NCBI RefSeq assembly: GCF_037038585.1
Contig: NC_092556.1
Location: 386,619 to 450,618 of the forward strand
Source of the DNA: Patagioenas fasciata
Lineage: Eukaryota
Reading direction: 5' to 3'
Length of the DNA stretch: 64,000 nt
The notes beneath the pieces were generated by a model that did not search any database, was not told the DNA's origin, and saw nothing but the letters and a program-made list of their open reading frames with translations. Shown here in pieces: positions 20,001-64,000 of the stretch (position 1 is its first letter; every line of letters begins with the position of its first letter). A program made the translations under genes and the position numbers.

Positions 20001-20339
20001 AACCCCACATTGCCCCATTTTACACCACAATTTACCCCAACTTCCCGCCATTTTCCGCTCTGGCCCCGCCCCTTCCCGCTCCCCCACTCGCTCCCCATTG
20101 GCTCACGGCACCGCTCGCCCCGCCCACTCGCTCCCCATTGACCCCATCGCCTCGCCCCGCCCACTCGCTCCCCATTGGCTCACGGCGCCGTCCGCCCCGC
20201 CCACTCGCTCCTCATTGACCCCCATCGCCTCGCCCCGCCCACTCGCTCCCCATTGGCTCACGGCGCCGCTCGCCCCGCCCACTCGCTCCCCATTGGTTCT
20301 CCACGTCCTCTCCCTCCCCTCCTCCCATTGATTGAGGCG

Positions 20340-32820: not shown

Positions 32821-32940
32821 CAGCACCTGACCCCCGTGTCCCTCCTTCCCCCCCCAGGCCGCCTCCCGCCTGCCCCACGGCTCCCAGCTGGGACCTCTGC
32901 CGACGCGTGGGGCCGCCCCATAGATTCCGTGGGTCGCGCG

Positions 32941-33051
32941 ATGCCGTCGCTCAGCCCCACGGATCCCGGGTTGTTCCGCCCCGAAGACCCCGAGACCCTG
33001 TTTGGGGACCTATGGGAGATCGGGCACGGCAGCTTCGGCGCCGTCTACTCC
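32941..33051 (+). CDS. TAOK2: TAOK2-like coding exon 1
   Basis: gcgcgATGCCG (purine at -3) through TACTCC|gtgagt. Encodes [37 protein letters not shown], including the glycine-loop GxGxxG. Confidence 0.85.
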
Positions 33052-42000: not shown

Positions 42001-44491
42001 CATTGATTCCCGTTATCCCCATTATCCCATTAATTACCCCATTGATCCCCATTATCCTGTTAATTATCCCCATTGATTCCCGTTATCCCCATTATCCCAT
42101 TAATTACCCCATTGATCCCCATTATCCCATTAATTATCCCCATTGATTCCCGTTATCCCCATTATCCCATTAATTACCCCATTTATCCCCATTATCCCAT
42201 TAATTACCCCACTGATCCCCATTATCCTGTTAATTATCCCCATTGATTCCCATTGTCCTTATTAACCCATTAATTACCTCATTGATCCCCGTTATCCTGT
42301 TAATTATCCCCATTGATTCCGGTTATCCCCATTATCCCGTTAATTACCCCATTGATCGCCATTATACTGTTAATTATCCCCATTGATTCCCATTGTCCCT
42401 ATTATCCCATTAATTGCCCCATTGATCCCCATTATCCCATTAATTACCCCATTCATTCCCATTGTCCCCATTATCCCATTAATTACCCCATTGATTCCCA
42501 TTACCCCATTAATTACCCCCATTGATCCCTATTATTCCATTAATTAGCCCCATTGATCCCCATTATCTCCATTATCCCGTTAATTATTGATCCCCATTGA
42601 TCTCAATTACCCCGTTAATTACCCCATTGATCTCCATTATCCCATTAATTACCCCATTGATCCCCATTATCCCATTAATTACCCCATTGATCCCTGCTAT
42701 CCCAGTAATTACCCCCATTGATCCCCATTGACCCCATTATCCCATTAATTACCCCTATTGACCCCCATTGATCCCATTAATTACCCCCGTTGATCCCATT
42801 AATTATCCGTGTTATCCCATTAGTTACCCCATTCATACCCATTATCCCATTAATTACCCCATTGATCCCCGTTACCCCGTTAATTACCCCATTAATTACC
42901 CCATTACCCCGTTAATTACCCCATTAATTACCCCATTACCCCGTTAATTACCCCATTAATTACCCCATTGCCCCGTTAATTACCCCGTTGACCCCGTTAC
43001 CCATCGATCCCATTCATTCCTTCATCCCCCCCATTCCCCCCTTCTCCCCTCACCCCATTGGCTCACTCTGCCCTTTGGCCCCGCCCCTTTCTCCAGCACC
43101 ACTTCCTGCAGAGGCCCCGCCCCCCGCGCGTGCTCCTGGATCTGATTGGCCGAGCCCAGGCGGCCGCGCGGGCCCTGGACCAGCTGCACCTGCGGCCAAT
43201 CAGGAAGCTGCTGCTCCCGGAAGGCCCCGCCCCCGGCCCCGCCCACCAGGTTCGTGGGGGGCGATTTTGGGGACGTTTTGGGGGAATTTGGGGACATTTT
43301 GGTCACCTTTCCGGACCCATTGTCCCTGTGGGGTGGCCCCATTGGCCCCATTGACCCCATGGGGCATCCCCAAGGTCCCGTTGACCCCATTGGGGTCCCC
43401 ATTGACCCCCATGTCCCCATTGTCCCCATTGGGGTCCCCATTGACCCCTTGGGCTCCGTTGACCCCCCAGGTGTCCTCATTGACCTCATTGTCCCCATTG
43501 GGGTCCCCATTGTCCCCTTGGGCTCCATTGACCCCCCATGTCCCCGTTGTCCCCAGTGTCACCTCCTGAGCTCCCATTGTCCCCATTGACCCCACAAGGT
43601 CCTATTGACCCCCATGTCCCCATTGTCCCGTTGGGTTCCATTGACCCCATGGGACATCCCCAAGGTCCCATTACCCCTATTGGGGTCCCCCATTGTCCCC
43701 CATTGTCCCCATATCCCCATTGGGGTTCCCATTGTCCCCTTGGGCCCCATTGACCCCATGGGACGTCCCCAAGGTCCCATTGTCCCCATTGACCCCATTG
43801 TCCCCATGGGACGTCCCCATTGACCCCACAAGGTCGCATTGACCCCCATGTCACCATTGGGGTCCCCATTGTCCCCTTGGGCCCCATTGACCCCATGGGA
43901 CGTCCCATTGTCCCCATTGACCCCACTGACCCCATGGGACGTCCCATTGTCCCCATTGACCCCATTGACCCCATGGGACGTCCCATTGTCCCCATTGACC
44001 CCATTGACCCCATGGGACGTCCCATTGTCCCCATTGACCCCATGGGACGTTCCATTGTCCCCTTGGGCCCCATTGACCCCATGGGACGTCCCCAAGGTCC
44101 CATTGTCCCCATTGTCCCCATGGGATGTCCCATTGTCCCCATTGACCCCACAAGGTCCCATTGACCCCATTTGTCCCCATTGGGGTCCCCATTGTCCCCT
44201 TGGGCCCCATTGACCCCATGGGACGTCCCCAAGGTCCCATTGACCCCATGGGACGTCCCCGATGTCCCCATTGACCCCATGGGATGTCCCCAATGTCCCC
44301 AGGGGGCGGAGCCCGCCGGCAGCCCCGAGCGCAGCCATTGGCCGCCCAGCGCGTCCGTCAGCGAATCGAGCGGCAGCAGCGGTGCCAGTGCGGCCAATGA
44401 CGACGGTGACGGTGACGACGGTGACGGTGACGACGGTGACGGTGACGACGGGGATGAGGAAGGGCCCCCATTGGCCGCCCCGCACCCGCCC
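32941..44491 (+). CDS. TAOK2: TAO-family Ser/Thr kinase (TAOK2-like), N-terminal 11 coding exons covering the kinase domain through the acidic region; C-terminal exons not found
   Basis: Plus-strand exons: 32941-33051, 33134-33205, 33295-33396, 34372-34417, 34493-34589, 36389-36502, 37711-37802, 40038-40131, 41093-41174, 43097-43249, 44303-44491. All are GT..AG and phases are consistent. The first exon starts at an acceptor at 32858, with 5'UTR before the ATG at 32941. Translation begins [361 protein letters not shown]...[12 protein letters not shown]. It is collinear with my recall of the human TAOK1/2/3 kinase domain. The acidic tract followed by EEGP and the 16p11.2 synteny favour TAOK2. 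Confidence 0.82.
33134..33205 (+). CDS. TAOK2: TAOK2-like coding exon 2 ([24 protein letters not shown])
   Basis: Acceptor ccatcag|GCCCGG and donor GATGAG|gtaatg. VAIKK contains the catalytic lysine. Confidence 0.85.
33295..33396 (+). CDS. TAOK2: TAOK2-like coding exon 3 ([34 protein letters not shown])
   Basis: Acceptor ccccccag|AAATGG and donor GCCTGG|gtgagc. Confidence 0.85.
33400..34340 (+). repeat. Satellite about 21 bp GACCCATAAGTGTGGGGCAGG with an about 125-160 bp higher-order period (TAOK2 intron 3)
   Basis: Direct reading. Confidence 0.85.
34372..34417 (+). CDS. TAOK2: TAOK2-like coding exon 4 ([15 protein letters not shown])
   Basis: Acceptor ctctccctag|CTGGCC and donor GGAGG|gtgagtgc. 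Confidence 0.82.
34493..34589 (+). CDS. TAOK2: TAOK2-like coding exon 5 ([33 protein letters not shown])
   Basis: Acceptor ccccacaag|TGCACAAG and donor CCACAG|gtcagc. Confidence 0.82.
34590..35700 (+). repeat. About 125 bp unit in about 8 copies (CCCCATAGRTCCCGCC blocks plus TTGTGTTGGTTTCTCTGGGTCTTTTCTTGCTTGTGCTGGTCGG) in TAOK2 intron 5
   Basis: Copies are near 34670, 34805, 34945, 35100, 35220, 35340, 35465 and 35640. Confidence 0.85.
35700..36370 (+). repeat. Satellite CCCCACTGACCCCGCCCCACAGCTCCTG (TAOK2 intron 5)
   Basis: Direct reading. Confidence 0.85.
36389..36502 (+). CDS. TAOK2: TAOK2-like coding exon 6 ([10 protein letters not shown]...DFGSA...VGTPYW)
   Basis: Acceptor ctgcccccag|GGACGTG and donor CTACTG|gtgagaga. 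Carries the HRDVKAGN and DFG motifs. Confidence 0.85.
36510..36970 (+). repeat. 63-bp unit in 7 copies (ACCCCCAAGTGTGGGGCTGGGACCCCCAAGTGTGGGGCTGGGACCATAGAGTGGCTGGGAGTGGGGGTTGTG), starting 8 nt after the TAOK2 exon 6 donor
   Basis: Direct reading. Confidence 0.9.
36970..37700 (+). repeat. C-rich low-complexity repeat CCCTGCCCCACACCCC (TAOK2 intron 6)
   Basis: Direct reading. Confidence 0.8.
37711..37802 (+). CDS. TAOK2: TAOK2-like coding exon 7 ([30 protein letters not shown])
   Basis: Acceptor ctgtccccag|GATGGCC and donor GAGCTGG|gtgagacg. Carries the APE motif. Confidence 0.85.
37810..38500 (+). repeat. 12-13 bp satellite CTGACCCACAGC / CCTGACCCATAGC (TAOK2 intron 7)
   Basis: Direct reading. 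Confidence 0.85.
38640..40020 (+). repeat. 23-bp satellite CTCTGCCCCACACATCCCCCCCG (38640-39120), then 16-17 bp CTCAGCCCCACCCCCCG in about 55 copies (39120-40020) (TAOK2 intron 7)
   Basis: Direct reading. Confidence 0.9.
40038..40131 (+). CDS. TAOK2: TAOK2-like coding exon 8 ([32 protein letters not shown])
   Basis: Acceptor ctgccccccag|CGGAGCGG and donor CCAATG|gtgagcgt. Confidence 0.85.
40140..41080 (+). repeat. GAACTCCTGGGTCCC / GCACTCCTGGGTCCCTGGG satellite (TAOK2 intron 8)
   Basis: Direct reading. Same family as 441-1310. Confidence 0.9.
41093..41174 (+). CDS. TAOK2: TAOK2-like coding exon 9 ([27 protein letters not shown])
   Basis: Acceptor ggggtcccag|GTCCCCG and donor CTGCAG|gtgcct. 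Matches the human [24 protein letters not shown] block. Confidence 0.78.
41240..43000 (+). repeat. 60-bp AT-richer satellite in about 28 copies, CCCCATTGATTCCCGTTATCCCCATTATCCCATTAATTACCCCATTGATCCCCATTATCCTGTTAATTATC (TAOK2 intron 9)
   Basis: Direct reading. Confidence 0.9.
43097..43249 (+). CDS. TAOK2: TAOK2-like coding exon 10 ([51 protein letters not shown])
   Basis: Acceptor ctttctccag|CACCAC and donor CACCAG|gttcgt. Matches the human [42 protein letters not shown] block. Confidence 0.8.
43300..44290 (+). repeat. 9-bp-based satellite CCCATTGACCCCATGGGACGTCCCATTGTCC (TAOK2 intron 10)
   Basis: Direct reading. Confidence 0.85.
44303..44491 (+). CDS. TAOK2: TAOK2-like coding exon 11 (Ser-rich then (DGDGDD)n acidic tract, ..[12 protein letters not shown])
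   Basis: Acceptor aatgtccccag|GGGGCGGAG and donor CCGCCC|gtgagtcc. Corresponds to the human [21 protein letters not shown] region. Confidence 0.65.
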
Positions 44492-45449: not shown

Positions 45450-46090
45450 TCCCGCCCAAATTCCCTCCGGCTTCACCCCCATTGCCCCCCCAGTTCCCCC
45501 CATTCCACCCCCAATTCCCCCTATTCCACCCCCAATTTCTCCCCCATTTCCCCCCCAGATTTCCCCCCCAGTTCCCCCATTGGTCCCCCCAGTTCCACCC
45601 CCACTTTCTCCCCCATTGATCCCCCCACTGATCCCCCCATTGATCCCCCCACTGATCCCCCCATTGATTCCCCCATTGATCCCCCCAGTTCCCCCATTAA
45701 GCCCCCCAGTTTGACCCCCAAAAATCCCCCCAGTTCCCCCATTGATCCCCCCAATTCCACCCCCACTTTCCCCCCCATGAACCCCATTGATCCCCCCATT
45801 GGCCCCATTGACCCCATTGGCCCCATTGACCCCATTGGCCCCATTGACCCCATTGATCCCATTGACCCCATTGGCCCCATTGATCCCATTGGCCCCATTG
45901 GCCCCATTGACCCCATTGACCCCATTGGTCCAATTGGCCCCATTCATCCCATCGGCCCCATTCATCCCATTGGCTCCATTGGCCTCATTGATCCCATTGG
46001 CCCCATTGACCCCATTGGCCCCATTGACCCCATTGACCCCATCGACCCCATCGACCCCATCGACCCCCTCGACCCCATTGCCCCCCTCGA
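45450..46090 (+). repeat. 6-12 bp satellite CCCCATTGATCC / CCATTGGCCCCATTGACC
   Basis: Direct reading. Confidence 0.85.
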
Positions 46091-47039
46091 CCCCCTTGCC
46101 CCCATCCCCCCCCCTCCCCTCCCCGCCCTCCCCAAGCCCCGCCCCCCGCCCCTCCCCCCCGCTCTCCCATTGGCCACCGCCCTCGCCGCCCTTTACCTCC
46201 GCCCCTCCCTCCCCCTCCTCCTCCTCCTCCTCCTCCTCTGGCTCCTCCCCCGCGCCGGGCGCGGCCCCGTGGGGGGCGGAGCCATGGGCGTGGCCTTGGC
46301 GCTGACCCTCCCGGAGCCCTCCTGGCGCCTGGGGCTGGCGGCCCTGGGCGCGGGGGCGGGGCTTTGGCCGCTGCTGGGGGCGCTGCCCCCCGGCCCCCGC
46401 GCCTGCGCCCCCGCGCTGCTGCTGGCGGCGCAGCTGCTGCGCTGGCCCTGCCTCTTCCTGGCCGCCTACCTGCTGGGGGCGGGGGGCCGGGGGGCGCTGG
46501 GGGGCGGCGGGGGGCGCCTGCAGCGCTGGCTCTTCCGGGGGGTGCTCGGCCTGCCCCCCCCCGTTTTCCGCCTCCTTTCCCGCCTGGGCTTGGTGGCCGA
46601 AGGGCGTTTCGCCCAAATCTTCCCCAAAACGCGGCCCCGTTGGGGCTTCCGCTCCCGCCTGCCCGTCCCCCGGCGCCGGCCCGCCCCGCCCCCCCCGCCC
46701 CTCCCCCTGCGCCTCTGGCGCCGCCTCCGCAGGGCTTGGGGGGAGGGGTGGGCGTGGGGGAGGGGGAGGGGGTGGGGGAGGGGGAGGGGAAGGGGGGGGG
46801 GAGCCCCCCAGCCGCATCCCACGCCCCGCCCCCCGCCCCCCCGCGGGGCCCCCAGGGAGGGGGGGAGGGGCCAGAAGCCCAGCGGGGGGGGCGGGGAGGG
46901 GAGCGGGGGCTCCGCCCCCGAGGAAACCGTGGAGGTGATGGAGGCCCCGCCCCCGCGGGGAGGAGGAGCCAATGGGGGGGGGGGGAGGGGAGGGGAGGGG
47001 AGGGGGGGTGGGGCGAGAAGGGCGGGAAAGGGGGGGGGA

Positions 47040-50088: not shown

Positions 50089-53000
50089 GTAACGGGGGGA
50101 CCGGGGGACTGGGGGGACTGGGGAGCGATTTGGGGTGACTGGGATGGACTGGGAGGGACTGGGGAGCGATTTGGGGTGACTGGGAGGGACTGGGGGGCGA
50201 TTTGGGGCGACTGGGATGGATGGGGAGGGACTGGGGGGCGACTGGGAGGGACTGGGAGGGATGCGGGGGGAACTGGGAGCGATTGGGAAGGACTGGGAGT
50301 GCTGGGATGGACTGGGGGGACTGGGAGCGACTGGGGGGCGATTTGGGGCGACTGGGATAAACTGGGAAGGGACTGGGGGGGACTGGGAGGGATGGGGGGG
50401 AACTGGGAGCGATTGGGAGGGACTGGGAGTGCTGGGATGGACTGGGGGGAACTGGGAGGGACTGGGAAGGGGTTGGGGGTGACTGGGATAAACTGGGGGG
50501 GCGCTGGGATGAACTGGGAGGGACTGGGGGGCACTGGGAAGGGATTGGGGGCACTGGGAGGGAACTGGGGAGGACTGGGATGTATTGGGAGGAACTGGGG
50601 GGACTGGGGGCACTGGGATGAACTGGGTGGACTGGGAAGCGATTTGGGGTGACTGGGAGGGCCTGAGAAGGGACTGGGAGGGATGGGGGGGGCACTGGGA
50701 GGGACTGGGAAAGGGTTGGGGGTGACTGGGGTAAACTGGGGGGGCACTGGGATGAACTGGGAGGGACTGGGGGGCACTGGGAAGCCTCTAAGAGTGGGTT
50801 TGGGGGTCTCTGTGCACAGGGGGTGCTCGGGGGGGGTTCTGGGTGACCCCCAGGGCCCTTGGGGAGCTGAAACGACCCATACTGGTCCATACTGGTTTAT
50901 ACTGGTTTATACTGGAAATGCCTCTAAGAGTGGATTTGGGGGTTCCTGTGCATAGGGGGTGCTTGGGGGGGGTTCTGGGTGACCCCCAGGGCCCTTGTGG
51001 AGCTGAAACGACCCATACTGGTCCATACTGGTCCATGCTGGTTTATACTGGAAACGCCTCTAAGAGCGGGTTTGGGGGTCTCTGTGCACAGGGGGTGCTC
51101 GGGGGGTCCCTGCTGACCCCCCCGCCCCTCCCCCCCCCCCAGGCTACGCCCGCGTGGCGCTGGCGGCCGCCTCGTTCTGGCTGATGCCGTCGCGCCCCGG
51201 CCCCGCGGCCGCGCTCTACGGGGCCAGCGCCGCTCTGGACGCCGTGGACGGCGCCGTGGCCCGCAGGCTCCACCAGGGTGGGCGGGGCTTGGGGGGGCGG
51301 GGCCTGGGGGCGGGGAGTTTGGGGGGCGGGGCTGATGGGGTGGGGGTGGGGTAGGTTGGGTGGATGGGGGGAGGATGGGGCATGGGGAGGTGGAGGGGGG
51401 GCGTGGTTTAGGAGGGAGGGGGGTGTGGTTTAGAGGGGGTGTGGTTTAGGTGGAGGGGGTGTGGATTAGAGGGGGTGTGGTTTAGGTGGGAGGGGGTGTG
51501 GTTTAGGAGGGAGGGGGGTGTGGTTTAGGTTGGAGGGGGGTGTGGTTTAGGTGGGGGGTGCGGTTTAGGTTGGAGGGGGTGTGGTTTAGGTGGGAGGGGG
51601 CGTGGTTTAGAGGGGGAGTGGTTTACAGGGGGTGTGGTTTAGGTGGGAGGGGGAGTGGCTTGGAGGGGGAGTGGCCTGAGGGGGTGGGGATGCAATGGGG
51701 CGGGGCCTCGGGGCTGGGGGAGGGGTAACGGGGGTGTATAGGGGTGGGGGGGGACATAGGGAGGTGGGAGGGGGCGTGGTTTAGGTGGGGAGGGGTGGGG
51801 CTTTTGGGGGTGGGGATTGGGGGGCGGGGTTTCCGGGGGGCGGGGCCTTGGGGGTGGGGGAGTGGTAACTGCGATGTATAGGGTGGGGAGGGGGCGTGGT
51901 TTAGAGGGGGTGTGGTTTAGGTGGAGGGGGTGTGGTTTAGAGGGGGTGTGGTTTAGGTGGGAGGGGGCGTGGTTTAGGTTGGAGGGGGTGTGGTTTAGGT
52001 GGGAGGGGGCGTGGTTTAGGTGGGAGGGGGCGTGGTTTAGAGGGGGAGTGGTTTATGTGTATTGGGTGTGGTTTAGAGGGGGTGTGGTTTAGAGGGGGTG
52101 TGGTTTAGAGGGGGTGTGGTTTAGAGGGGGCGTGGTTTAGAGGGGGTTGTGGTTTAGAGGGGGCGTGGTTTAGGTGGGAGGGGGCGTGGCTTGGAGGAGT
52201 CGAGGCCACGAGGGGGCAGGTGAAATGACCTATACTGGTTTATACTGGTCCATATTGGTTTATACTGGTCCATACTGGTTTATACTGGGAATGGCATTAT
52301 GGGGGTTTTCTTGGGCAAGGGGGAGCCAGGGGGTCACTGGGGGGTCCCCTAGGACCCTTGAGGAGGTGAAATGACCGATACTGGTTTATACTGGTCCATA
52401 CTGGTTTATACTGGTTTCTGCTGGTTTGAAGGCCCTTAGGGGGTGTCTATGGGGGGTTGGTTCCGGGGGTCACCCGGGGGCCCCCCCGCTGTCCCCGCCC
52501 CCCCAGGGACCCGTTTTGGCGCCATGCTGGACATGCTGACCGACCGGCTGAGCTCCATGTGCCTATTGGTCAACCTGGCGCTGCTCTACCCGGCAACCGC
52601 CGCCCTGTTCCAGCTCAGCATGGCGCTGGACATCGCCAGCCATTGGCTGCACCTGCACTGGTGGGCGGGGCCGGCGGGGGGCGGGGCCCGGCCAGAAGGG
52701 GCGGGGGCAGAGGGGGTGGGGATAAAGGGGGGGGCATAGAGGGGGCGGAGCTAAACGGGGTGGGGGTAAGAGGGTGGGGGTAAGGGGGCGGAGCTAAAGG
52801 GGTGGGGATAGAGGGGGCGGAGCTAAAGGGGTGGAGGTATGGGGGCGGAGCTAAAGGGGTGGGGATAGAGGGGGCGGAGCTAAAGGGCTGAGGGGTGGGG
52901 ACAAAGGGGGTGGGGATAAAGGAGGCGGAGCTTGCAAGAGGGGGTGGGGATAAAGGGGGTGGGGCTAAAGGAGAGAGGTGAAGGGGGCGGTGCTAAAGGG

Positions 53001-56000
53001 GGTGGGGATGAAGAGGGTGGGGCTAAAAGGGGGTGGGGCTAAAGGGGTGGAGCTAAAGGCAGTGGGAATAAAAGGGGTGGAGCTAAGGGGGGCGGGGATA
53101 AAGGGGGTGGGGTTAGAAGGGGCGGGGATAGAGGAGGTGGAGCTAAAAGGGGTTGGGAAGAAGGGGTGGAGCTAAAGGGGCGGAGCTTGGAGGGGATGGG
53201 CGGGGCTAAGGGGGTGTGGTCGGGGGGTGAACTGGGGGGTGCTGGGAAGGCCCAGCTGGGGTCTATGGGGGGGGGGGTGGGCGAAGGGGCGTGGCCGGTG
53301 GGCGTGTCCCCCGTGACCCCGCCCCCTTTCCCCTCCCCCAGCACCACCCTGGAGGGCGGAGCCTCCCACAAGAACGTGGGGGGGGAGGGGCACTGGCTGC
53401 TGCGCCTCTACTACACACACAAGGTGGGGGAGGGGCCAAGGGGGAGGGGCCAAGGGGTGGGGGAGGGGTCATGGGGTTGGGGGAGGGGCCAAGGGGGAGG
53501 GGTCATGTGGTAGGGGGAGGGGTCAGGGGTTTGGGGTGGGGTTGGGGGTGGAGTCATGGATTTGGGGGTGTGGTCAGGGGTTTGGGGGTGGGGTGATGGA
53601 TTTGGGGGTGGGGTCATGGATTTGGGGGTGTGGTCAGGGGTTTGGGGGCGGGGTGATGGATTTGGGGGTGGGGTCAGGGATTTGGGGGTGGGGTCAGAGG
53701 GGTGGGGTGGGGTCATGGGGCGTGGCCAATGTAGGAGGCGGGGTCATTATTTGGGGGCGGGGCCAGGGATTTGGGGGTGTGGTCAGTGTAGGGGTGGAGT
53801 CATTTGGGGGTGGGGGGGCGTGGTCAGTGTGGGGGTGGAGTCAGGGTGGGGTCAGTGTATGGGGACGGGGTCATTATTGGGGGCGGGGCCGTGGGGTTGT
53901 GGGCGGGGCCACGGGGTTGGGGTGGGGTCAGGCGGCTGTGGGCGGGGCCGGGGGCGTGTCCAGCTCAGGGGGCGTGTCGGCGCTGTCCCCGCCCCCAGCC
54001 GGTGCTGTTCGTGGTCTGTGCTGGGAACGAAGCGTTTTACTGCGCGCTCTACCTGCTCCGCTTCGGCGACGGGCCCCGCGGTGAGGCGCTGGGCACACGG
54101 GGCACAGACTGGGCACAGACTGGGTACACTGGGTACAGACTGGTTAGACTGGGTACAGACTGGTCAGACTGGGTACGGACTGGTCAGACTGGGTACAGAC
54201 TGGTTAGATTGGGTACAGACTGGTCAGACTGGGTACAGACTGGTCAGACTGGGTACGGACTGGTCAGACTGGGTACGGACTGGTTAGACTGGGTACAGAC
54301 TGGTTAGACTGGGTACGGACTGGTTAGACTGGGTACGGACTGGTCAGACTGGGTACGGACTGGTCAGACTGGGTACAGACTGGTCAGACTGGGTACGGAC
54401 TGGTCAGACTGGGTACGGACTGGTCAGACTGGGTACGGACTGGTCAGACTGGGTACGGACTGGTCAGACTGGTTACAGACTGGTCAGACTGGGTACAGAC
54501 TGGTCAGACTGGGTACAGACTGGTCAGACTGGGTACAGACTGGTCAGACTGGGTACGGACTGGTCAGACTGGGTACGGACTGGTCAGACTGGGTACAGAC
54601 TGGTTAGATTGGGTACAGACTGGTCAGACTGGGTACAGACTGGTTAGACTGGGTACGGACTGGTCAGACTGGGTACAGACTGGTCAGACTGGGTACGGAC
54701 TGGTCAGACTGGGTACAGACTGGTCAGACTGGGTACAGACTGGTCAGACTGGGCACAGACTGGTCAGACTGGGTACAGACTGGTCAGACTGGGTACGGAC
54801 TGGTCAGATTGGGTACGGACTGGTCAGACTGGGTACAGACTGGTCAGACTGGGTACAGACTGGTCAGACTGGGTACGGACTGGTCAGACTGGGTACGGAC
54901 TGGTCAGACTGGGTACGGACTGGTCAGACTGGGTACAGACTGGTCAGACTGGGTACAGACTGGTCAGACTGGGTACGGACTGGTCAGACTGGGTACGGAC
55001 TGGTCAGACTGGGTACAGACTGGTCAGACTGGGTACAGACTGGTCAGACTGGGCACAGACTGGTCAGACTGGGTACAGACTGGTTAGATTGGGTACAGAC
55101 TGGTCAGACTGGGTACGGACTGGTCAGACTGGGTACAGACTGGTTAGATTGGGTACAGACTGGTCAGACTGGGTACGGACTGGTCAGACTGGGTACAGAC
55201 TGGTCAGACTGGGTACAGACTGGTCAGACTGGGTACAGACTGGTCAGACTGGGTACAGACTGGTCAGACTGGGTACGGACTGGTCAGACTGGGTACAGAC
55301 TGGTCAGACTGGGTACAGACTGGTTAGACTGGGTACAGACTGGTCAGACTGGGTACGGACTGGTCAGACTGGGTACAGACTGGTCAGACTGGGCACAGAC
55401 TGGTTAGATTGGGTACAGACTGGTTAGATTGGGTACAGACTGGTCAGACTGGGTACAGACTGGTTACAGACTGGTTAGACTGGTTACAGACTGGTTACAG
55501 ACTGGTTACACTGGTTACAGACTGGTTACAGACTGGTTACAGACTGGTTAGACTGGTTACACTGGTTACAGACTGGTTACAGACTGGTTAGACTGGTTAC
55601 ACTGGTTACAGACTGGTTAGACTGGTTACAGACTGGTTAGACTGGTTACAGACTGGTTACAGACTGGTTACACTGGTTACAGACTGGTTACAGACTGGTT
55701 AGACTGGTTACACTGGGTACAGACTGGTTACAGACTGGTTACAGACTGATTACACTGGTTACACTGGTTACAGATTGGTCAGACTGGTTACACTGGTTAC
55801 ACTGGTTACACTGGTTACACACTGGTTACACTGGGGAGAGAGTGGTCAGACTGGTTACAGACTGGTCACAGACTGGTTACACTGGTCAGACTGGTCACAG
55901 ACTGGTTACACTGGTCAGACTGGTTACAGACTGGTTACACTGGTTACAGACTGGTTACACTGGTTACAGACTGGTTACAGACTGGTTACACTGGTTACAG

Positions 56001-57697
56001 GCTGGTTAAACTGGTTACAGACTGGTTACACTGGTTACAGGCTGGTTAAACTGGTTACAGACTGCTCAGACTGGTTACAGACCGGTTACACTGGTTACAG
56101 ACTGGTTACACTGGTTACACTGGTTACACTGGTTACACTGGTTACAGACTGGTCAGACTGGTTACAGACTGGTTAGACGACTGGTTACACTGGTTACAGA
56201 CTGGTTACAGACTGGTTACACTGGTTACAGACTGGTCAGACTGGTCAGACTGGTTACACTGGTTACAGACTGGTCAGACTGGTCAGACTGGTTACAGACT
56301 GGTTGCACTGGTTACACACTGGTTACACTGGTTACAGACTGGTTAGACTGGTCAGACTGGTCAGACTGGTTACACACTGGTTACACTGGTTACAGACTGG
56401 TCAGACTGGTTACACTGGTTACAGACTGGCTACACTGCGGAGAGACTGGTTATACTGGTTAGAGACTGGATATACCAGTTATGGACTGGTCAGACTGGTT
56501 ACAGACTGGTTAGACTGGAGAGAGACTGGTTAGAGACTGGGGAGAGACTGGTTAGACTGGTTAGAGACTGGGGAGAGACTGGTTAGACTGGTTAGAGACT
56601 GGATAGACCAGTTACAGACCGGTTAAACTGGTTACAGACTGGTTAGAGACTGGGGAGAGACTGGTTAGACTGGTTAGAGACTGGATATACCAGTTACGGA
56701 CTGGTTAGACTGGTTACAGACTGGTTAGACTGGAGAGAGACTGGTTAGAGACTGGATATACCAGTTACGGACTGGTTAGACTGGTTACAGACTGGTTAGA
56801 GACTGGATAGACCAGTTACAGACTGGTTAGACTGGTTAGAGAGACTGGTTATAGCCATTAGAGACTGGTTAGCCTGGTTATACCAGTTAGAGACCAGTTA
56901 GAGCCTCATTAGACTGGTTAGAGCCTCATTAGACTGGTTAGAGACTGGGGAAAGAGACCGGTTATGATACTGGTTATACTGGTTAGAGAGACTGGTTAGA
57001 CTGGTTAGCGAGATTGGTTAGACTGGGGAGACTGGTCAGACTGGGGAGTTACACTGGTTATACTGGGAACACTGGTTATACTGGGGGTCTGGTTATACTG
57101 GGGAGGTTGGTTATACTGGGAGACTGGGGGGAACTACGGGGAACTGGTTTATACTGGAGGGACTGGGAGGGATTGGGGAGCACTGGGATGAACTGGGAGG
57201 GGATTGGGAAGGACTGGGGGGGTCACTGGGATGAACTGGGGGTCACTGGTCGGTACTGGTCTGTACTGGTCCATACTGGTCTGGACTGGTCCGTACTGGT
57301 CCCAGGGGGCCCCGGGCTGTTCAGCCTCCTCCTCTGGGTCGGGACTGGGGGGCACTGGTCTGAACTGGTCCGTACTGGTCTGAACTGGTCCATACTGGTC
57401 CATACTGGTCTGAACTGGTCCGTACTGGTCTGAACTGGTCCGTACTGGTCTGAACTGGTCCGTACTGGTCCATACTGGTCTGAACTGGTCCATACTGGTC
57501 TGAACTGGTCCGTCCTGGTCCCAGTGCTCCCGGGGGGCCCCGGGCTGTTCCGCCTCCTCCTCTGGGTCGCGACCCCCATGGCCGCCCTCAAGTTCCTGCT
57601 GAACCTGCTGCAGCTGGGCGGAGCCGCCGCGCGATTGGCCGCCCTGGACGCCGCCGCCAGGCGATTGGACGGGGCGCCCCGCCCCAAAACCCAGTGA
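50040..57697 (+). CDS. CDIPT: CDP-diacylglycerol--inositol 3-phosphatidyltransferase (phosphatidylinositol synthase), complete CDS in 6 exons, 224 aa
   Basis: Plus-strand exons: 50040-50088, 51143-51277, 52507-52660, 53342-53423, 53999-54080, 57525-57697 (includes stop). Translation: MGGKGENVLLFAPNVIGYARVALAAASFWLMPSRPGPAAALYGASAALDAVDGAVARRLHQGTRFGAMLDMLTDRLSSMCLLVNLALLYPATAALFQLSMALDIASHWLHLHCTTLEGGASHKNVGGEGHWLLRLYYTHKPVLFVVCAGNEAFYCALYLLRFGDGPRGVLPGGPGLFRLLLWVATPMAALKFLLNLLQLGGAAARLAALDAAARRLDGAPRPKTQ*. It is collinear with my recall of human CDIPT (..FLFVPNLIGYARI...DAFDGHAARALNQGTRFGAMLDMLTDRCSTMCLLVNLALLYP...SHWLHLH...LRIYYTSRPALFTLCAGNELFYCLLYL..) and carries the CDP-alcohol phosphatidyltransferase D-G-x-x-A-R...G-x-x-x-D-x-x-x-D signature. 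All junctions are GT..AG. Confidence 0.9.
50090..50790 (+). repeat. 7-bp based satellite GACTGGGAGGGACTGGGGGGC (CDIPT intron 1)
   Basis: Direct reading. Confidence 0.85.
51143..51277 (+). CDS. CDIPT: CDIPT exon 2
   Basis: Acceptor cccccccccag|GCTACGCC and donor CACCAGG|gtgggcgg. Confidence 0.88.
51290..52170 (+). repeat. About 20 bp satellite GGTGTGGTTTAGGTGGGAGGG (CDIPT intron 2)
   Basis: Direct reading. Confidence 0.85.
52507..52660 (+). CDS. CDIPT: CDIPT exon 3
   Basis: Acceptor cgcccccccag|GGACCCG and donor GCACTG|gtgggcgg. Contains the GAMLDMLTDR active-site block. Confidence 0.9.
52690..53230 (+). repeat. About 30 bp satellite GGCGGAGCTAAAGGGGTGGGGATAAAGG (CDIPT intron 3)
   Basis: Direct reading. 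Confidence 0.85.
53342..53423 (+). CDS. CDIPT: CDIPT exon 4
   Basis: Acceptor cctcccccag|CACCACC and donor CACAAG|gtgggggag. Confidence 0.88.
53999..54080 (+). CDS. CDIPT: CDIPT exon 5
   Basis: Acceptor cgcccccag|CCGGTGCTG and donor CCCCGCG|gtgaggcg. Confidence 0.88.
54090..57060 (+). repeat. 3 kb satellite in CDIPT intron 5: 22-bp GACTGGTCAGACTGGGTACAGAC in about 60 copies (54090-55450), grading into ACTGGTTACAGACTGGTTAC variants (55450-57060)
   Basis: Direct reading. Confidence 0.9.
57525..57697 (+). CDS. CDIPT: CDIPT exon 6 (terminal; ..LWVATPMAALKFLLNLL.., stop TGA)
   Basis: Acceptor cgtcctggtcccag|TGCTCCC. Frame is continuous from exon 5. The stop is at 57695-57697. Confidence 0.82.
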
Positions 57698-57789
57698 CTC
57701 CGCCCCAGAACCCGCCCGGGACCCCCGCGAAATGTCCCCAAAACCGCCCCATAAACGGAGCAACCGCCCACCCCTGGAGGGGTTTCCTC

Positions 57790-59400
57790 ACCATTGACTC
57801 GTTAACGCCTTCGCCAATCAACGGGGGGTTAATTAGGGGCTAATTAAGAGTGGGGAGGGGTCTCCTGACCTTCTAGACCCCATAACTACCAACCCAACCC
57901 ATTGAGACCCAATGACCACCAACCCCATTGAGACCCAACCACCAACCCTATGTAGATGCAACTTCACCATTGACTCATTAAGCCTCTGGCCAATCAATGG
58001 GGGGTTAATTAGGGGCTAATTAAGAGTGGGGGAGGAGTCACCTGACCTTCTAGACCCCATAACTACCAACCCAACCCACTGAGACCCAATGACCACCAAC
58101 CCCATTGAGATGCAACCACCAACCCCTTGAGATGTTTCCTCACCATTGACTCATTAAGCCCTTGGCCAATCAACGGGGGGTTAATTAGGGGCTAATTAAG
58201 ACTGGGGGAGGAGTCACCTGACCTTCTAGACCCCATAACTACCAACCCCATAGAGACCCAATGACTACGAACCCATTGAGACTCAAGAACCATCAACCCC
58301 ATTGAGTTGTTTCTCCACCATTGACTCATTAAGCCCTTGGCCAATCAAAAGGTTAATTAATTATGGACTAATTAAGAGTGGGGAGGGGTCTCCTGACCTT
58401 CTAGACCCCGTAACTACCAACCCAACCCATTGAGACCCAATGACCACCAACCCCATTGAGATGCAACCACCAACCCCTTGAGATGTTTCCTCACCATTGA
58501 CTCATTAAGACCTTGGCCAATCAAAATGTTAATTAATAAGGGGTTAATTAAGAGTGGGGAGGGGCCTCCTGGCCTTCTAGACCCCATAACTACCAACCCC
58601 ATAGAGACCCAATGACCACCAACCCACTGAGACCCAATGACCGTGAACCCCATTGAGATGCAACCACCAACCCCTTGAGATGTTTCCTCACCATTGACTC
58701 ATTAAGCCCTTGGCCAATCAACGGGGGGTTAATTAGGGGCTAATTAAGACTGGGGGAGGAGTCATCTGACCTTCTAGACCCCATAACTACCAACCCCATA
58801 GAGACCCAATGACCATGAACCCATTGAGACCCAACGACCATCAACCCCATTGAGTTGTTTCTCCACCATTGACTCATTAAGCTCTTGGCCAATCAAAAGG
58901 TTAATTAATTATGGACTAATTAAGAGTGGGGAGGGGTCTCCTGACCTTCTAGACCCCATAACTACCAACCCAACCCACTGAGACCCAATGACCACCAACC
59001 CCATTGAGACCCAACCACCAACCCTATGTAGACGCAACTTCACCATTGACTCATTAAGCCTTTGCCAATGAATGGGGGGTTAATTAGGGGCTAATTAAGA
59101 GTGGGGAGGGGCCTCCTGGCCTTCTAGACCCCATAACTACCAACCCCATAGAGACCCAATGACCACCAACCCATTGAGACTCAAGAACCATCAACCCCAT
59201 TGAGATGTTTCCTCACCATTGACTCATTAAGCCCTTGGCCAATCAACGGGGGGTTAATTATGGACTAATTAAGAGTGGGGAGGGGTCTCCTGACCTTCTA
59301 GACCCCATAACTACCAACCCAACCCACTGAGACCCAATGACCGTGAACCCCATTGAGATGCAACCACCAACCCCTTGAGATGTTTCCTCACCATTGACTC
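57790..59400 (+). repeat. 177-bp (nucleosome-length) satellite in about 9 copies, containing GGCCAATCAA and GGGTTAATTAGGGGCTAATTAAG motifs, between the convergent 3' ends of CDIPT and MFAP4-like
   Basis: Monomer starts (CACCATTGACTCATTAAGCC) are near 57965, 58143, 58316, 58494, 58685, 58862, 59040, 59215 and 59390. Confidence 0.88.
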
Positions 59401-59472
59401 CTGAAGCCTGTGGCCAATTAACGAGCGGGTTTAATTGCACGCGCGGGGGCGGGGCGGGGCGGGGGCGGGGCC

Positions 59473-59720
59473 TCAGAGGCGCCGGATCTTCATCTCGCTC
59501 TTGCGCAGCGAGTAGTAGAAGCCCTTCCACTGGGCCCAGTTGATGCCGTTGGCGTAGGAGAGGTGGGCGCCCCCCAGGTAGAAGCCGTTGAGGTTGGAGA
59601 AGTGGCAGCTGCGGAACCACCAGGCGCCCGAGGAGAGGGCGGCGCAGTTCTGCACGTACAGGTCCTGGTCGCGGTCGAAGGTGGAGAACTTCTGCCCGTT
59701 GTGGTAGCTCAGGGAGTCCC
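59473..59720 (-). CDS. MFAP4: MFAP4-like last exon ([39 protein letters not shown]...EMKIRRL*)
   Basis: Acceptor caccccccag|GGGACTCC on the minus strand. The stop codon TGA is at 59473-59475. Confidence 0.88.
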
Positions 59721-62510
59721 CTGGGGGTGGGGGGGGTCGTTGGGGTGGGGTCCCCGTCCCCATGGTTGACATTGACCTGGGGTCCCCTCCATTGACCTGG
59801 GGTCCCCTCCATTGACCTGGGGTCCCCTCCATTGACCTGGGGTCCCATTCCCATGGTTGACGTTGACTTGATCTCCCTCCCATTGACCCCCATTGACCAC
59901 ATTGAACCCCATTGACCCCCATTGACCCCCATTGACTCCCATTGATCCCCATTGACTGCCATTGAACCCCATTGACCCCCATTGACCCCCATTGACGCCC
60001 ATTGACTCCCATTGACCGCCATTGACTCCCATTGACCCCCACTGATCCCCATTGACCCCCATTAACTCCCATTGACGCCCATTGATTCCCATTGATCCCC
60101 ATTGACCCCCATTGACTTCCATTGATTCCCATTGACCCCCATTGACCTCCATTGACTCCCATTGACCCCCATTGACCCCATTGATCCCCATTGACCCCCA
60201 TTGACTCCTGGTCGCGGTCGAAGGTGGAGAACTTCTGCCCGTTGTGGTAGCTCAGGGAGTCCCCTGGGGGTGGGGGGGTCGTTGGGGTGGGGTCCCCGTC
60301 CCCGTGATTGACGTTGACCTGGGGTCCCCTCCCCATGGTTGACATTGACCTGGGGTCCCCTCCATTGACCTGGGGTCCCCTCCCCATGGTTGACATTGAC
60401 CCAATGGCCCTCATGGTGGACGTTGACCTGGGGTCCCCTCCATTGACCTGGGGTCCCCTCCATTGACCTGGGGTCCCATTCCCATGGTTGACGTTGACTT
60501 GATCTCCCTCCCATTGACCACATTGAACCCCATTGACCCCCATTGATCCCCATTGACTCCCATTGATCCCCATTGACTGCCATTGAACCCCATTGACCCC
60601 CATTGACCCCTGTTGATCCCCATTGACTCCCATTGACTTCCATTGATTCTCATTGACTCCCATTGACCCCATTGACGCCCATTGACTCCCATTGACCGCC
60701 ATTGACCCCCATTGACTCCCATTGACCCCCATTGACTCCCATTGACCACCATTGACCCCCACTGACCCCCATTGACCCCCATTGACCCCCATTGACCCCC
60801 ATTGATCCCCATTGATCCCCATTGACCCCCATTGACTCCTGGTCGCGGTCGAAGGTGGAGAACTTCTGCCCGTTGTGGTAGCTCAGGGAGTCCCCTGGGG
60901 GTGGGGGGGTCGTTGGGGTGGGGTCCCCGTCCCCATGGTTGACATTGACCTGGGGTCCCCTCCATTGACCTGGGGTCCCCTCCATTGACCTGGGGTCCCC
61001 TCCATTGACTTCTTGTCCCCTCCCCATGGTTGACATTGACCTGGGGTCCCCTCCATTGACCTGGGGTCCCATTCCCATGGTTGACGTTGACTTGATCTCC
61101 CTCCCATTGACCACATTGAACCCCATTGACCCCCATTGACCACATTGAACCCCATTGACCCCCATTGACTCCCATTGACCCCCACTGACCCCCACTGACC
61201 CCCATTGATTCCTATTGACCCCCATTGACTCCCATTGACTTTCATTGATTCCCATTGACCCCCATTGACTCCCAGTGACCCCCAGTGACCCCCACTGACC
61301 CCCATTGACCCCCATTGACTCCCATTGACCCCCATTGACTCCCAGTGACCCCCAGTGACCCCCACTGACCCCCATTGACCCCCATTGACCCCCATTGACT
61401 CCCATTGACCCCCACTGACCCGCATTGACTCCCATTGACCCCCATTGACTCCCATTGACCCCCACTGACCCCCATTGACTCCCATTGACCCCCATTGACC
61501 CCATTGACCCCCACTGACCCCCACTGACCCCCATTGAACCCCATTGACTCCCATTGACCCCCATTGACCCCATTGACCCCCATTGACCCCCATTGATCCC
61601 CATTGACTCCCATTGACTCCCATTGACCCCCATTGACCCCGTTGACCCCCATTGACCCCATTGACCCCCATTGACTCCTGGTCGCGGTCGAAGGTGGAGA
61701 ACTTCTGCCCGTTGTGGTAGCTCAGGGAGTCCCCTGGGGGTGGGGGGGTCGTTGGGGTGGGGTCCCCGTCCCCGTGATTGACGTTGACCTGGGGTCCCCT
61801 CCATAGACCTGGGGTCCCCTCCATGGACCTGGGGTCCCATTCCCATGGTTGACGTTGACTTGATCTCCCTCCCATTGACCACATTGAACCCCATTGACCC
61901 CCATTGACCACATTGACTCCCATTGACCCCCATTGACTCCCATTGATCCCCATTGACTGCCATTGAACCCCATTGACCCCCATTGACCCCTGTTGATCCC
62001 CATTGACCCCCATTGACTTCCATTGATTCTCATTGACTCCCATTGACCCCCACTGACGCCCATTGACCCCCATTGACCCCAATTGACTCCCACTGACCCC
62101 CATTGACCCCCACTGACCCCCACTGATCCCCACTGACCCCCATTGACTCCCATTGACCCCCATTGACTCCGTTGACCCCCATTGACCCCCACTGATCCCC
62201 ATTGACCCCATTGACCCCCATTGACCCCCATTGATCCCCATTGACTCCCATTGACTCCGTTGCCCCCCACTGACCCCCACTGACCCCCATTGCCCCCCGT
62301 CGCCCCCCGTCGCCCCCCGCCCCTCACCGGCGCCGCCGTCCACGAAGCCGCCCACGTGCAGGGTGTACCCGTCCTCCTCGGCGCTCACGGCGTGGGGCGA
62401 CAGCGCGAAGCGGCCGTAGGTGGCGGCCGCCGAGTTGTTCTCGAAGTCCTCGAGCTCCACGCGCAGCTCGTAGCGGCCCTGCAGCGTCAGCAGGTGCAGC
62501 GCCTGCAGCC
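59473..62510 (-). CDS. MFAP4: MFAP4-like fibrinogen C-terminal domain protein, 3' terminal two coding exons only (partial at window end)
   Basis: Minus-strand exons 62328-62510 and 59473-59720. Translation: (G)[142 protein letters not shown]. It is nearly collinear with my recall of the human MFAP4 C-terminus (..[142 protein letters not shown]). Upstream exons must lie beyond 64000. Confidence 0.82.
59730..62310 (+). repeat. 12-bp satellite CCATTGACCCCC with a 550-840 bp higher-order structure carrying copies of the MFAP4-like last-exon 5' fragment (MFAP4-like intron)
   Basis: Direct reading. Confidence 0.9.
62328..62510 (-). CDS. MFAP4: MFAP4-like penultimate exon ([25 protein letters not shown]...[10 protein letters not shown])
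   Basis: Acceptor ccccacctgcag|GGCTGCAG and donor GGCGCCG|gtgaggggcg on the minus strand. 183 bp. Phase is consistent with the last exon. Confidence 0.82.
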
Positions 62511-62519
62511 CTGCAGGTG

Positions 62520-64000
62520 GGGTGATGTGGGGTGATGTGGGGTGATGTGGGGCAGATGTGGGGCGGGATGTGGGGTGATGTGGGGCAGATGTGGGGCGGG
62601 ATGTGGGGTGATGTGGGGCGGGATGTGGGGTGATGTGGGGCGGGATGTGGGGCAGCTCGTAGCGGCCCTGCAGCGTCAGCAGGTGCAGCGCCTGCAGCCC
62701 TGCAGGTGGGGCGATGTGGGGTGATGTGGGGTGATGTGGGGCAGGATGTGGGGCGGGATGTGGGGCAGATGTGGGGCGGGATGTGGGGCAGCTCGTAGCG
62801 GCCCTGCAGCGTCAGCAGGTGCAGCGCCTGCAGCCCTGCAGGTGGGGCGATGTGGGGTGATGTGGGGTGATGTGGGGTGATGTGGGGAGGGATGTGGGGC
62901 AGATGTGGGGCGGGATGTGGGGCAGCTCGTAGCGGCCCTGCAGCGTCAGCAGGTGCAGCGCCTGCAGCCCTGCGTGTGGGGTGATGTGGGGTGATGTGGG
63001 GTGATGTGGGGCAGATGTGGGGCAGATGTGGGGCGGGATGTGGGGCAGCTCGTAGCGGCCCTGCAGCGTCAGCAGGTGCAGCGCCTGCAGCCCTGCAGGT
63101 GGGGTGATGTGGGGTGATGTGGGGCAGATGTGGGGCGGGATGTGGGGCAGATGTGGGGTGATGTGGGGCAGATGTGGGGCAGGATGTGGGGCAGCTCGTA
63201 GCGGCCCTGCAGCGTCAGCAGGTGCAGCGCCTGTAGCCCTGGATGTGGGGTGATGTGGGGTGATGTGGGGCGGGATGTGGGGCAGCTCGTAGCGGCCCTG
63301 CAGCGTCAGCAGGTGCAGCACCTGCAGCCCTGCATGTGGGGTGATGTGGGGTGATGTGGGGTGATGTGGGGTGATGTGGGGCAGGATGTGGGGCGGGATG
63401 TGGGGCAGCTCGTAGCGGCCCTGCAGCGTCAGCAGGTGCAGCGCCTGCAGCCCTGCAGGTGGGGCGATGTGGGGTGATGTGGGGTGATGTGGGGCAGGAT
63501 GTGGGGCGGGATGTGGGGCAGATGTGGGGCGGGATGTGGGGCAGCTCGTAGCGGCCCTGCAGCGTCAGCAGGTGCAGCGCCTGCAGCCCTGCAGGTGGGG
63601 CGATGTGGGGTGATGTGGGGTGATGTGGGGTGATGTGGGGAGGGATGTGGGGCAGATGTGGGGCGGGATGTGGGGCAGCTCGTAGCGGCCCTGCAGCGTC
63701 AGCAGGTGCAGCGCCTGCAGCCCTGCGTGTGGGGTGATGTGGGGTGATGTGGGGTGATGTGGGGCAGATGTGGGGCAGATGTGGGGCGGGATGTGGGGCA
63801 GCTCGTAGCGGCCCTGCAGCGTCAGCAGGTGCAGCGCCTGCAGCCCTGCAGGTGGGGTGATGTGGGGTGATGTGGGGCAGATGTGGGGCGGGATGTGGGG
63901 CAGATGTGGGGTGATGTGGGGCAGATGTGGGGCAGGATGTGGGGCAGCTCGTAGCGGCCCTGCAGCGTCAGCAGGTGCAGCGCCTGTAGCCCTGGATGTG
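62520..64000 (+). repeat. About 120-150 bp tandem units in about 11 copies. Each is a copy of the MFAP4-like penultimate-exon acceptor plus the first about 50 nt of that exon, followed by GATGTGGGG satellite
   Basis: The unit GGGCAGCTCGTAGCGGCCCTGCAGCGTCAGCAGGTGCAGCGCCTGCAGCCCTGCAGGTGGGGTGATGTGGGG.. is repeated. The minus-strand ORF 62812-63321 reads [17 protein letters not shown] three times. Confidence 0.9.

Follow-up and report, generated by a model that had tools for sequence, protein, structure and literature searches.

Exon stuttering of MFAP4 in the pigeon lineage: exon starts and their splice acceptors repeated in tandem within satellite-filled introns

The minus strand at the right end of a 64,000-nucleotide (nt) stretch of Patagioenas fasciata DNA (NCBI RefSeq assembly GCF_037038585.1, contig NC_092556.1, forward-strand positions 386,619 to 450,618; hereafter the window) carries the last two coding exons of the avian MFAP4 gene. 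Both exons are intact, and the start of each, together with its splice acceptor, is tandemly amplified inside the gene's own introns, as an initial annotation of the window had described. We interpret these arrays, with a probability of about 0.8, as exon stuttering that arises as a side effect of how unstable tandem repeats are, to an extreme degree, in GC-rich genes of avian dot chromosomes. The novelty implied by the initial annotation does not hold. Hron et al. (2026, Genome Biol Evol 18:evag038, PMC12954441; preprint September 2025) described "sequence stuttering" of chicken dot-chromosome introns; of their 236 affected introns, 190 lie on dot chromosomes. In the exon stuttering subtype, a coding-exon edge and its splice site undergo direct tandem repetition in the adjacent intron. 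More than 90% of stuttering sources lay within 1 base of an exon border, the exon pieces measured 20-187 base pairs (bp), and each expansion held 1-44 copies. Among the 115 exon-stuttering genes catalogued in their Fig. S5 is chicken MFAP4, on dot chromosome 38 (chr38:1462727-1477796). A full-text search returned no other papers on exon stuttering.

All MFAP4 features below lie on the minus strand, and slashes mark junctions. Exon 4, the penultimate coding exon, spans 62328-62510 (183 nt), with the donor CCG/GTGAGG at 62327. Exon 5, the last, spans 59473-59720 (248 nt including the TGA stop codon) with its acceptor AG at 59722-59721, and its encoded protein begins with (G) and ends in KIRRL before the stop. 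A regular-expression scan from the exon-4 donor to position 59300 found a single AATAAA or ATTAAA, the poly(A) signal ATTAAA at 59430-59435. The two-exon protein matched the Pfam family Fibrinogen_C (E = 3.5e-40) and was 94-95% identical to curlew and cuckoo MFAP4, with exon 5 reaching 97.6% against cuckoo MFAP4 residues 168-249 (tblastn). Compared with Columba guinea, a second pigeon, 7 of 431 exon nucleotides differ (1.6% of positions; 98.4% identity); the amino acids of exon 5 are the same and those of exon 4 differ at 2 of 60. Three of the four Columba guinea differences in exon 5 fall in its stuttered first 58 nt, and a clustering of substitutions there was considered. Acceleration of the window's exon 5 was rejected because outgroups make two of those three differences Columba guinea-derived. 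Both real exons are conserved, with intact open reading frames (ORFs) and splice sites, so the coding exon is unaltered, as exon stuttering requires.

Tandem Repeats Finder called 83.7% of the window (1-64000) as tandem repeat and covered introns 3 and 4 essentially completely. Per 2 kb, the GC content of the window is 51-76%. Canonical G-quadruplex (G4) motifs occupy 17% of its plus strand and 21% of its minus strand. Coverage is higher in the MFAP4 introns: 47% for the sense strand of intron 4, and 54% for the opposite strand of the intron-3 part. Intron 4 spans 59721-62327 (2607 nt) and divides into four higher-order units, 543, 631, 839, and 653 bp long. The window end truncates intron 3, of which the 3' part (62511-64000) is visible.

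The first 58 nt of exon 5 recur as three further copies in intron 4, all 100% identical by exact and fuzzy matching (array A; the copies are termed decoys). With their acceptor AG they occupy 60206-60265 (A1; copy 60206-60263, AG 60264-60265; 100% identity, 115 bits), 60837-60896 (A2; copy 60837-60894), and 61676-61735 (A3; copy 61676-61733), and A3 is the earliest-transcribed acceptor of the array. The real exon 5 forms the final unit. The initial annotation had described three copies of about 56 nt with the acceptor and about 70 nt of intron; these are real, extend to 58 nt, and reach 2 nt lower in coordinate than noted. Each copy retains the AG and about 70 nt of intron flank, and the flanks are the same except for one G in a G-run. 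At spacings of 543, 631, and 839 bp, the units consist of the 58-nt exon piece, about 75 nt of unique flank, 20-mer repeats, and then a CCCATTGACC 10-mer satellite. Similarity spans the entire units, which are 93-96% identical with gaps excluded and carry many satellite-length indels. The junction between exon piece and satellite, taken from decoy A1, reads cattgacT CC/TGGTCGCGG. At exon position 2, all copies carry the G derived in the window's lineage, where five other birds have C.

The second array lies in intron 3. The first 48 nt of exon 4 recur there as 11 copies from 62652 to 63991, eight exact and three with one substitution (97.9-100% identical), and since array B continues past the window end, 11 copies is a minimum. 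The initial annotation had reported an approximately 11-copy array of the exon-4 acceptor and first 50 or so nt fused to satellite, and this was borne out, the satellite being of the GATGTGGGG type. Units of 91-189 bp comprise the 48-nt exon-4 start, the AG, and (GATGTGGGG)n, with the AG kept in 11 of 11. Including the AG, the copies lie at 62652-62701 (B1, 189 nt upstream of the real acceptor), 62788-62837 (B2), 62922-62971 (B3), 63045-63094 (B4), 63191-63240 (B5), 63282-63331 (B6), 63405-63454 (B7), 63541-63590 (B8), 63675-63724 (B9), 63798-63847 (B10), and 63944-63993 (B11). The substitution in B5, shared by B11, changes CTGCAG to CTACAG, and the acceptor flank of B5 is CATCCAG; the substitution in B6 makes the array's only GT (CAG/GTGCTG, 4.2 bits). 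Six successive units, with spacings of 136, 134, 123, 146, 91, and 123, build a 753-bp higher-order repeat (62655-64000). Its second copy starts at 63408 and is cut by the window end; 62655-63407 and 63408-64000 show 0 mismatches over 593 nt. The acceptor flanks are mixed: a derived CACCTGCAG is common to six decoys and the real exon, and two decoys, B3 and B9, keep the Columba guinea-type CACACGCAG. This pattern suggests continuing exchange between the real junction and the copies.

These matches far exceed chance. With blastn-short, array-A copies scored 115 bits and array-B copies 88-96 bits, compared with a best score of 24.3 bits in 20 shuffled introns. The published screen (blastn-short, -dust no, match of at least 20 nt, bit score of at least 42.1 and above the shuffled-intron control; Hron et al.) returned 14 passing matches in the window, each starting from exon base 1 and each in the adjacent upstream intron only. 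All copies are direct, and blastn-short found no exon-start copies in non-adjacent introns or on the opposite strand. The 14 decoy acceptors counted by the initial annotation are thus present within the window, all phased like the real ones. Copies in the adjacent intron, their score, a source at the exon border with its splice site, an intact exon, and a repeat-covered intron, the sequence features that define exon stuttering, were all found here.

Comparison with other birds places these events in order. Cuckoo MFAP4 is compact, with introns of 500-700 bp and no exon copies; its introns already hold degenerate CTGCCCCACATCC repeats (intron 3) and GGTCAAC/TGGGG repeats (intron 4). Curlew MFAP4 has introns of about 3 kb with related tandem repeats throughout and no exon copies, and exon-start copies are also absent from ground tit MFAP4. 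Across orthologous introns, the satellites without exon pieces are CCCCACATC in intron 3 and GGGGTCAATGG or GGTCAAC-type in intron 4. Because such satellites are present in cuckoo and curlew introns without exon pieces, the short satellites are older than the exon capture.

Columba guinea offers a closer comparison. Its intron 4 consists of 2.1 kb of GGGGTCAATGG satellite with no exon-5 copies, so that array A is absent. Its intron 3 contains three exon-4-start copies, one full-length with one mismatch and two internally deleted (contig L004, 9120-9158 and 9478-9515), the latter with the same 24-nt deletion between CTGCAG direct repeats. The shared deletion suggests that decoys decay by slippage while the real exon stays intact. 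In all three copies the junction reads GAGCTG/CCCCACAT, the same as in the window. Since this junction is common to an independent assembly, array B appears to be real rather than an assembly artefact and to have been founded before the split of the two pigeons. Copy number, which the initial annotation had proposed comparing with related species, does differ between the window and Columba guinea: at least 11 vs 3 for array B and 3 vs 0 for array A. Array A would accordingly be younger, or lost or collapsed in Columba guinea.

Columba guinea also shows a third capture. Two segments (L004 12514-12640 and 13198-13324) are 100% identical, the copy lying 684 bp downstream in a 176-bp satellite. 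They contain the last 54 nt of coding sequence, the stop codon, and about 70 nt of 3' untranslated region with ATTAAA, and the junction has the microhomology AAGGG. This is an independent exon stuttering at the 3' end of the gene, not in an intron; in the window, no such copy of the exon-5 3' end was found. In Columba guinea, the 176-bp satellite 3' of MFAP4 and a 20-mer CTGGTCAGACTGGTTACAGA array are found at the same places as in the window. When window 57760-59436 and 54105-57130 were compared with L004 12620-16735, the arrays aligned at only about 72-86%, against 98.4% identity of the exons. Satellite position is kept while satellite sequence turns over quickly. The deposited Columba guinea MFAP4 model (P0013; L004 10001-12568) starts inside exon 4 and skips 28 residues; the gene prediction was probably misled by the stuttered introns.

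The junctions themselves point to a mechanism. Each array has one novel junction, identical in all its copies, as expected from a single founding tandem duplication followed by unit amplification. Exon and satellite share microhomology at each junction: TCC in array A, GCAG in array B, and AAGGG in the Columba guinea 3' capture. By our own calculation, the joint chance of at least 3, 4, and 5 nt at three junctions is about 6e-6, using P(k) = (k+1)p^k(1-p)^2 with p = 0.26. These microhomologies favour template switching, slippage, or microhomology-mediated joining over blunt joining as the likely pathway.

A sequence of events can be proposed on this basis. Short G4-prone satellites would already have been present in MFAP4 introns 3 and 4. 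In each intron, one microhomology-mediated tandem duplication, through a replication template switch or slippage, may then have joined a breakpoint in the satellite to a second one lying 48 or 58 nt into the downstream exon. The exon edge would thereby have been captured into the satellite's higher-order unit, and the upstream copy would consist of the acceptor and exon start fused to satellite. A tandem duplication always leaves one intact copy, so the gene would have survived. With a breakpoint inside the exon, the intact copy is the terminal one, which accounts for the real exon being the last unit of each array and for the tolerance of such events. Unequal exchange or slippage between units would subsequently have amplified and rearranged the founder unit, and gene conversion with the real junction may keep the copies near-identical. 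Both the higher-order periodicity and the identity of the 753-bp copies speak for a later expansion through unequal exchange. The unequal exchange of a founder unit proposed in the initial annotation therefore fits the single junction per array and, in array B, the 753-bp period with its 593-nt identity.

How the decoys relate to splicing was considered from their surroundings. By their own sequence, the decoy acceptors are indistinguishable from the real ones; what differs is the downstream context. This context is read here under the exon-definition model established for vertebrates (Berget and colleagues). Donor scores were obtained with an approximate matrix, on which the real exon-4 donor (9.2 bits) is the only strong donor and lies at least 372 nt from any decoy. 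Of the 11 array-B decoys, nine are followed by no GT or by a single weak one in the next 400 nt, the sequence being C-rich and virtually GT-free. Array-A decoys are followed by G-run satellite with best GT sites of 3.8-6.3 bits and no poly(A) signal. Under this model only the last copy of each array couples to a strong donor or a poly(A) site; the decoys could not be defined as exons and for that reason are probably seldom spliced, and they appear to be without function. The question of how splicing avoids the decoys is not addressed by Hron et al., whose study is essentially chicken-only and without transcript data.

A bolder reading, which we consider unlikely, holds that gene conversion keeps the decoys perfect, so that more than 14 authentic acceptors sit permanently in the pre-mRNA. 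Either their use would then be measurable, as in-frame extended isoforms or as a copy-number-dependent expression brake that varies between individuals, or they would be actively suppressed by a process tied to the G-run and C-run satellites. As a separate part of this reading, the 3-5 nt microhomologies would mark G4-satellite template switching as a general mechanism of exon stuttering.

Functional decoys in a narrower sense are quite improbable. They would serve as alternative acceptors, adding 63 or 181 amino acids, or as non-productive decoys that tune MFAP4 through intron retention. The acceptors are indeed perfect, with the AG kept in 14 of 14, and Hron et al. noted that the copies "create potential alternatively spliced transcripts". 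Both proximal decoys also read through in frame with no stop: B1 to the real donor (62328-62699; +189 nt, 63 amino acids) and A1 to the real exon 5 (+543 nt, 181 amino acids). An ATG-initiated ORF of 449 amino acids (59473-60822) spans decoy A1 and ends at the real exon-5 stop codon; an exact look-up of this ORF returned no record. In the sense frames, stop codons are nearly absent from the G-rich and C-rich satellites. Against such a function, most distal decoys meet stop codons, and in array A the frame closes after 81 amino acids if A2 is used and after 283 if A3 is used. No donor follows the decoys, and an insertion in the middle of the fibrinogen C domain would be unlikely to fold. Cuckoo, curlew, and ground tit lack the copies, and the two pigeons, only 1.6% apart in these exons, differ in the copy numbers of both arrays.

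Related candidates were rejected. Cassette or mutually exclusive exon duplication does not apply, as the copies end 48 or 58 nt in, continue into satellite, and have no comparable donor after them. For recursive splicing, the decoys read AG/GGGACT and AG/GGCTGC, with no regenerated AG/GT. An origin from a paralogue or pseudogene fragment is contradicted by copies that include intron flank and share one junction. A conserved regulatory decoy or poison exon is contradicted by absence from the three other birds named above and by unlike copy numbers in two close pigeons.

An assembly artefact, in which a long-read assembler introduced false tandem expansions in a low-complexity region, is very improbable as an account of the arrays. 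The initial annotation had named an artefact as grounds for refuting its claims; this objection falls away for array B through the shared junction and retains some force for array A, which is seen only here. In its favour, the two 753-bp array-B copies are 100% identical over 593 nt, and Hron et al. warn that local variation can be technical. Array A was found in the window only, with no other contig or ORF holding its junction: a protein-collection search with the decoy-junction ORF matched only an unrelated bird's exon 5, and metagenome scans for the array-A and array-B junctions gave 0 matches. Against it, the three array-B copies in Columba guinea are unlike one another, and the lengths of the array-A units vary (543, 631, 839, and 653 bp), with many indels between units and an identity of only 93-96%; these units are not duplicated reads of one locus. 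In chicken, moreover, stuttering was verified by raw nanopore reads (Hron et al.).

The least credible account starts from the proposal in the initial annotation that the arrays were seeded from the exon-intron junction, and would derive the whole satellite from the junction sequence. In its favour, CCCCACATC is similar to the C-rich polypyrimidine tract that lies just before the exon-4 acceptor (cuckoo reads ctgccccacggccgccccccag), and Hron et al. make the case that the repeats arose locally. Against it, 9-12-nt satellites devoid of exon sequence fill introns 3 and 4 in both cuckoo and curlew as well as intron 4 in Columba guinea, the exon piece occurs once per 91-839-bp higher-order unit and not per satellite unit, and the same motif families recur at 9797-11865, 14540-15833, and 45773-46105.

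Several points weigh against our interpretation of the arrays as non-functional exon stuttering. Searches for array A outside this window found no independent support. The identical 753-bp copies could be either a very recent duplication or an assembly over-expansion, and two independent events at one microhomology site could conceivably account for the array-B junction shared by the two pigeons. Similar satellites at distant window sites sit awkwardly with a strictly local origin. With regard to splicing, decoy acceptors match the real ones over 12 to at least 70 nt upstream, and the in-frame products of the proximal decoys (+63 and +181 amino acids) would not necessarily be removed by nonsense-mediated decay. 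Work by Reed and Maniatis in 1986 on duplicated splice sites reportedly suggests that the acceptor nearest the donor can win, a preference that would favour decoy A3.

The surroundings of MFAP4 show how far the phenomenon extends within the window. Downstream of MFAP4, on the other strand, lie a TAO-kinase-like gene (32932-43237, plus strand), recognized from successive ORFs that match consecutive segments of the Pkinase profile, and a CDIPT-like gene (51142-54076, plus strand). The order TAO-kinase-like, CDIPT-like, MFAP4 is the same on the 1.06-Mb cuckoo chromosome record CM030674.1 and on the Columba guinea contig. Nine TAO-kinase-like and three CDIPT-like exons had no copies in their flanking introns, although these introns are filled with tandem repeats. 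As no copies surround these 12 exons, exon capture is not general: within the window it is specific to MFAP4, and plain intronic satellite expansion is everywhere. The distant recurrences of the GATGTGGGG and CCCCATTGA/TC motif families are large arrays lying tens of kilobases away. A CCCGAACTCCTGGGTCCCC-type 19-20-mer occurs at several window sites on both strands, and further arrays lie at 456-1303, 18316-20005, and 40146-41080.

Our findings reveal that exon stuttering, systematically documented so far only in chicken, also affects MFAP4 in the pigeon lineage. One gene has been hit at least three times independently, at the starts of exons 4 and 5 and, in Columba guinea, at the end of exon 5. 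Single microhomology junctions and the occurrence of one of them in both species provide first concrete clues to the mechanism and timing of an unexplained phenomenon. The locus is a compact natural experiment on spliceosome choice, with four identical acceptors for the terminal exon within 3 kb. For annotation, the Columba guinea model illustrates that stuttered arrays can derail gene prediction. The phenomenon itself is already published, for this gene in chicken too, and the pigeon case adds modestly on mechanism and age.

Among known systems, the arrays most resemble exon stuttering as described in chicken. Both combine an intact exon with direct tandem copies of the exon edge and splice site in an adjacent, repeat-saturated intron, with the source at the exon border. 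The 48- and 58-nt pieces and the 3 and at least 11 copies are within the published ranges, the setting is GC-rich and G4-rich, the gene is the MFAP4 found on chicken chr38, and copy number varies between close relatives. The cases differ in the bird, of the pigeon lineage here and chicken in the published study, and in the array-B founding junction common to two species, which indicates that the founding event was not very recent. In chicken, intraspecific variation in intron length is a key feature; here, the variation is seen between species. The mechanism proposed by Hron et al. is speculative (G4 or replication stress, or meiotic gene conversion), whereas 3-5 nt microhomology, a single founder per array, and higher-order structure are documented here.

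The arrays also share features with minisatellite or variable-number tandem repeat higher-order repeats. Units of 10 nt are nested within 543-839 bp, and units of 9-12 nt within 91-189 bp within 753 bp; neighbouring higher-order copies are near-identical, and copy number turns over fast. Unlike those, the higher-order unit here takes in parts of the host gene, namely a unique exon edge together with a functional splice acceptor. For microhomology-mediated tandem duplication, Hron et al. name fork stalling and template switching/microhomology-mediated break-induced replication (FoSTeS/MMBIR) and polymerase-theta end joining at G4 sites as candidates. The likeness lies in the 3-5 nt at each novel junction in DNA dense with G4 motifs, and the pathway here is a candidate one. 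In C. elegans, G4-induced polymerase-theta events are mainly small deletions, which differs from the present case. Like tandem exon duplication, these arrays hold coding-sequence copies in tandem inside one gene; in contrast, only 48-58 nt are copied, with an acceptor and no donor, and the copies cannot act as cassette exons. Decoy exons, pseudo-exons, and cryptic splice sites are likewise intronic splice-site-like elements that compete with, or are ignored by, the spliceosome. The MFAP4 decoys show no evidence of use, regulation, or conservation, and they stand apart from those elements in that their acceptors are exact copies of the authentic one.

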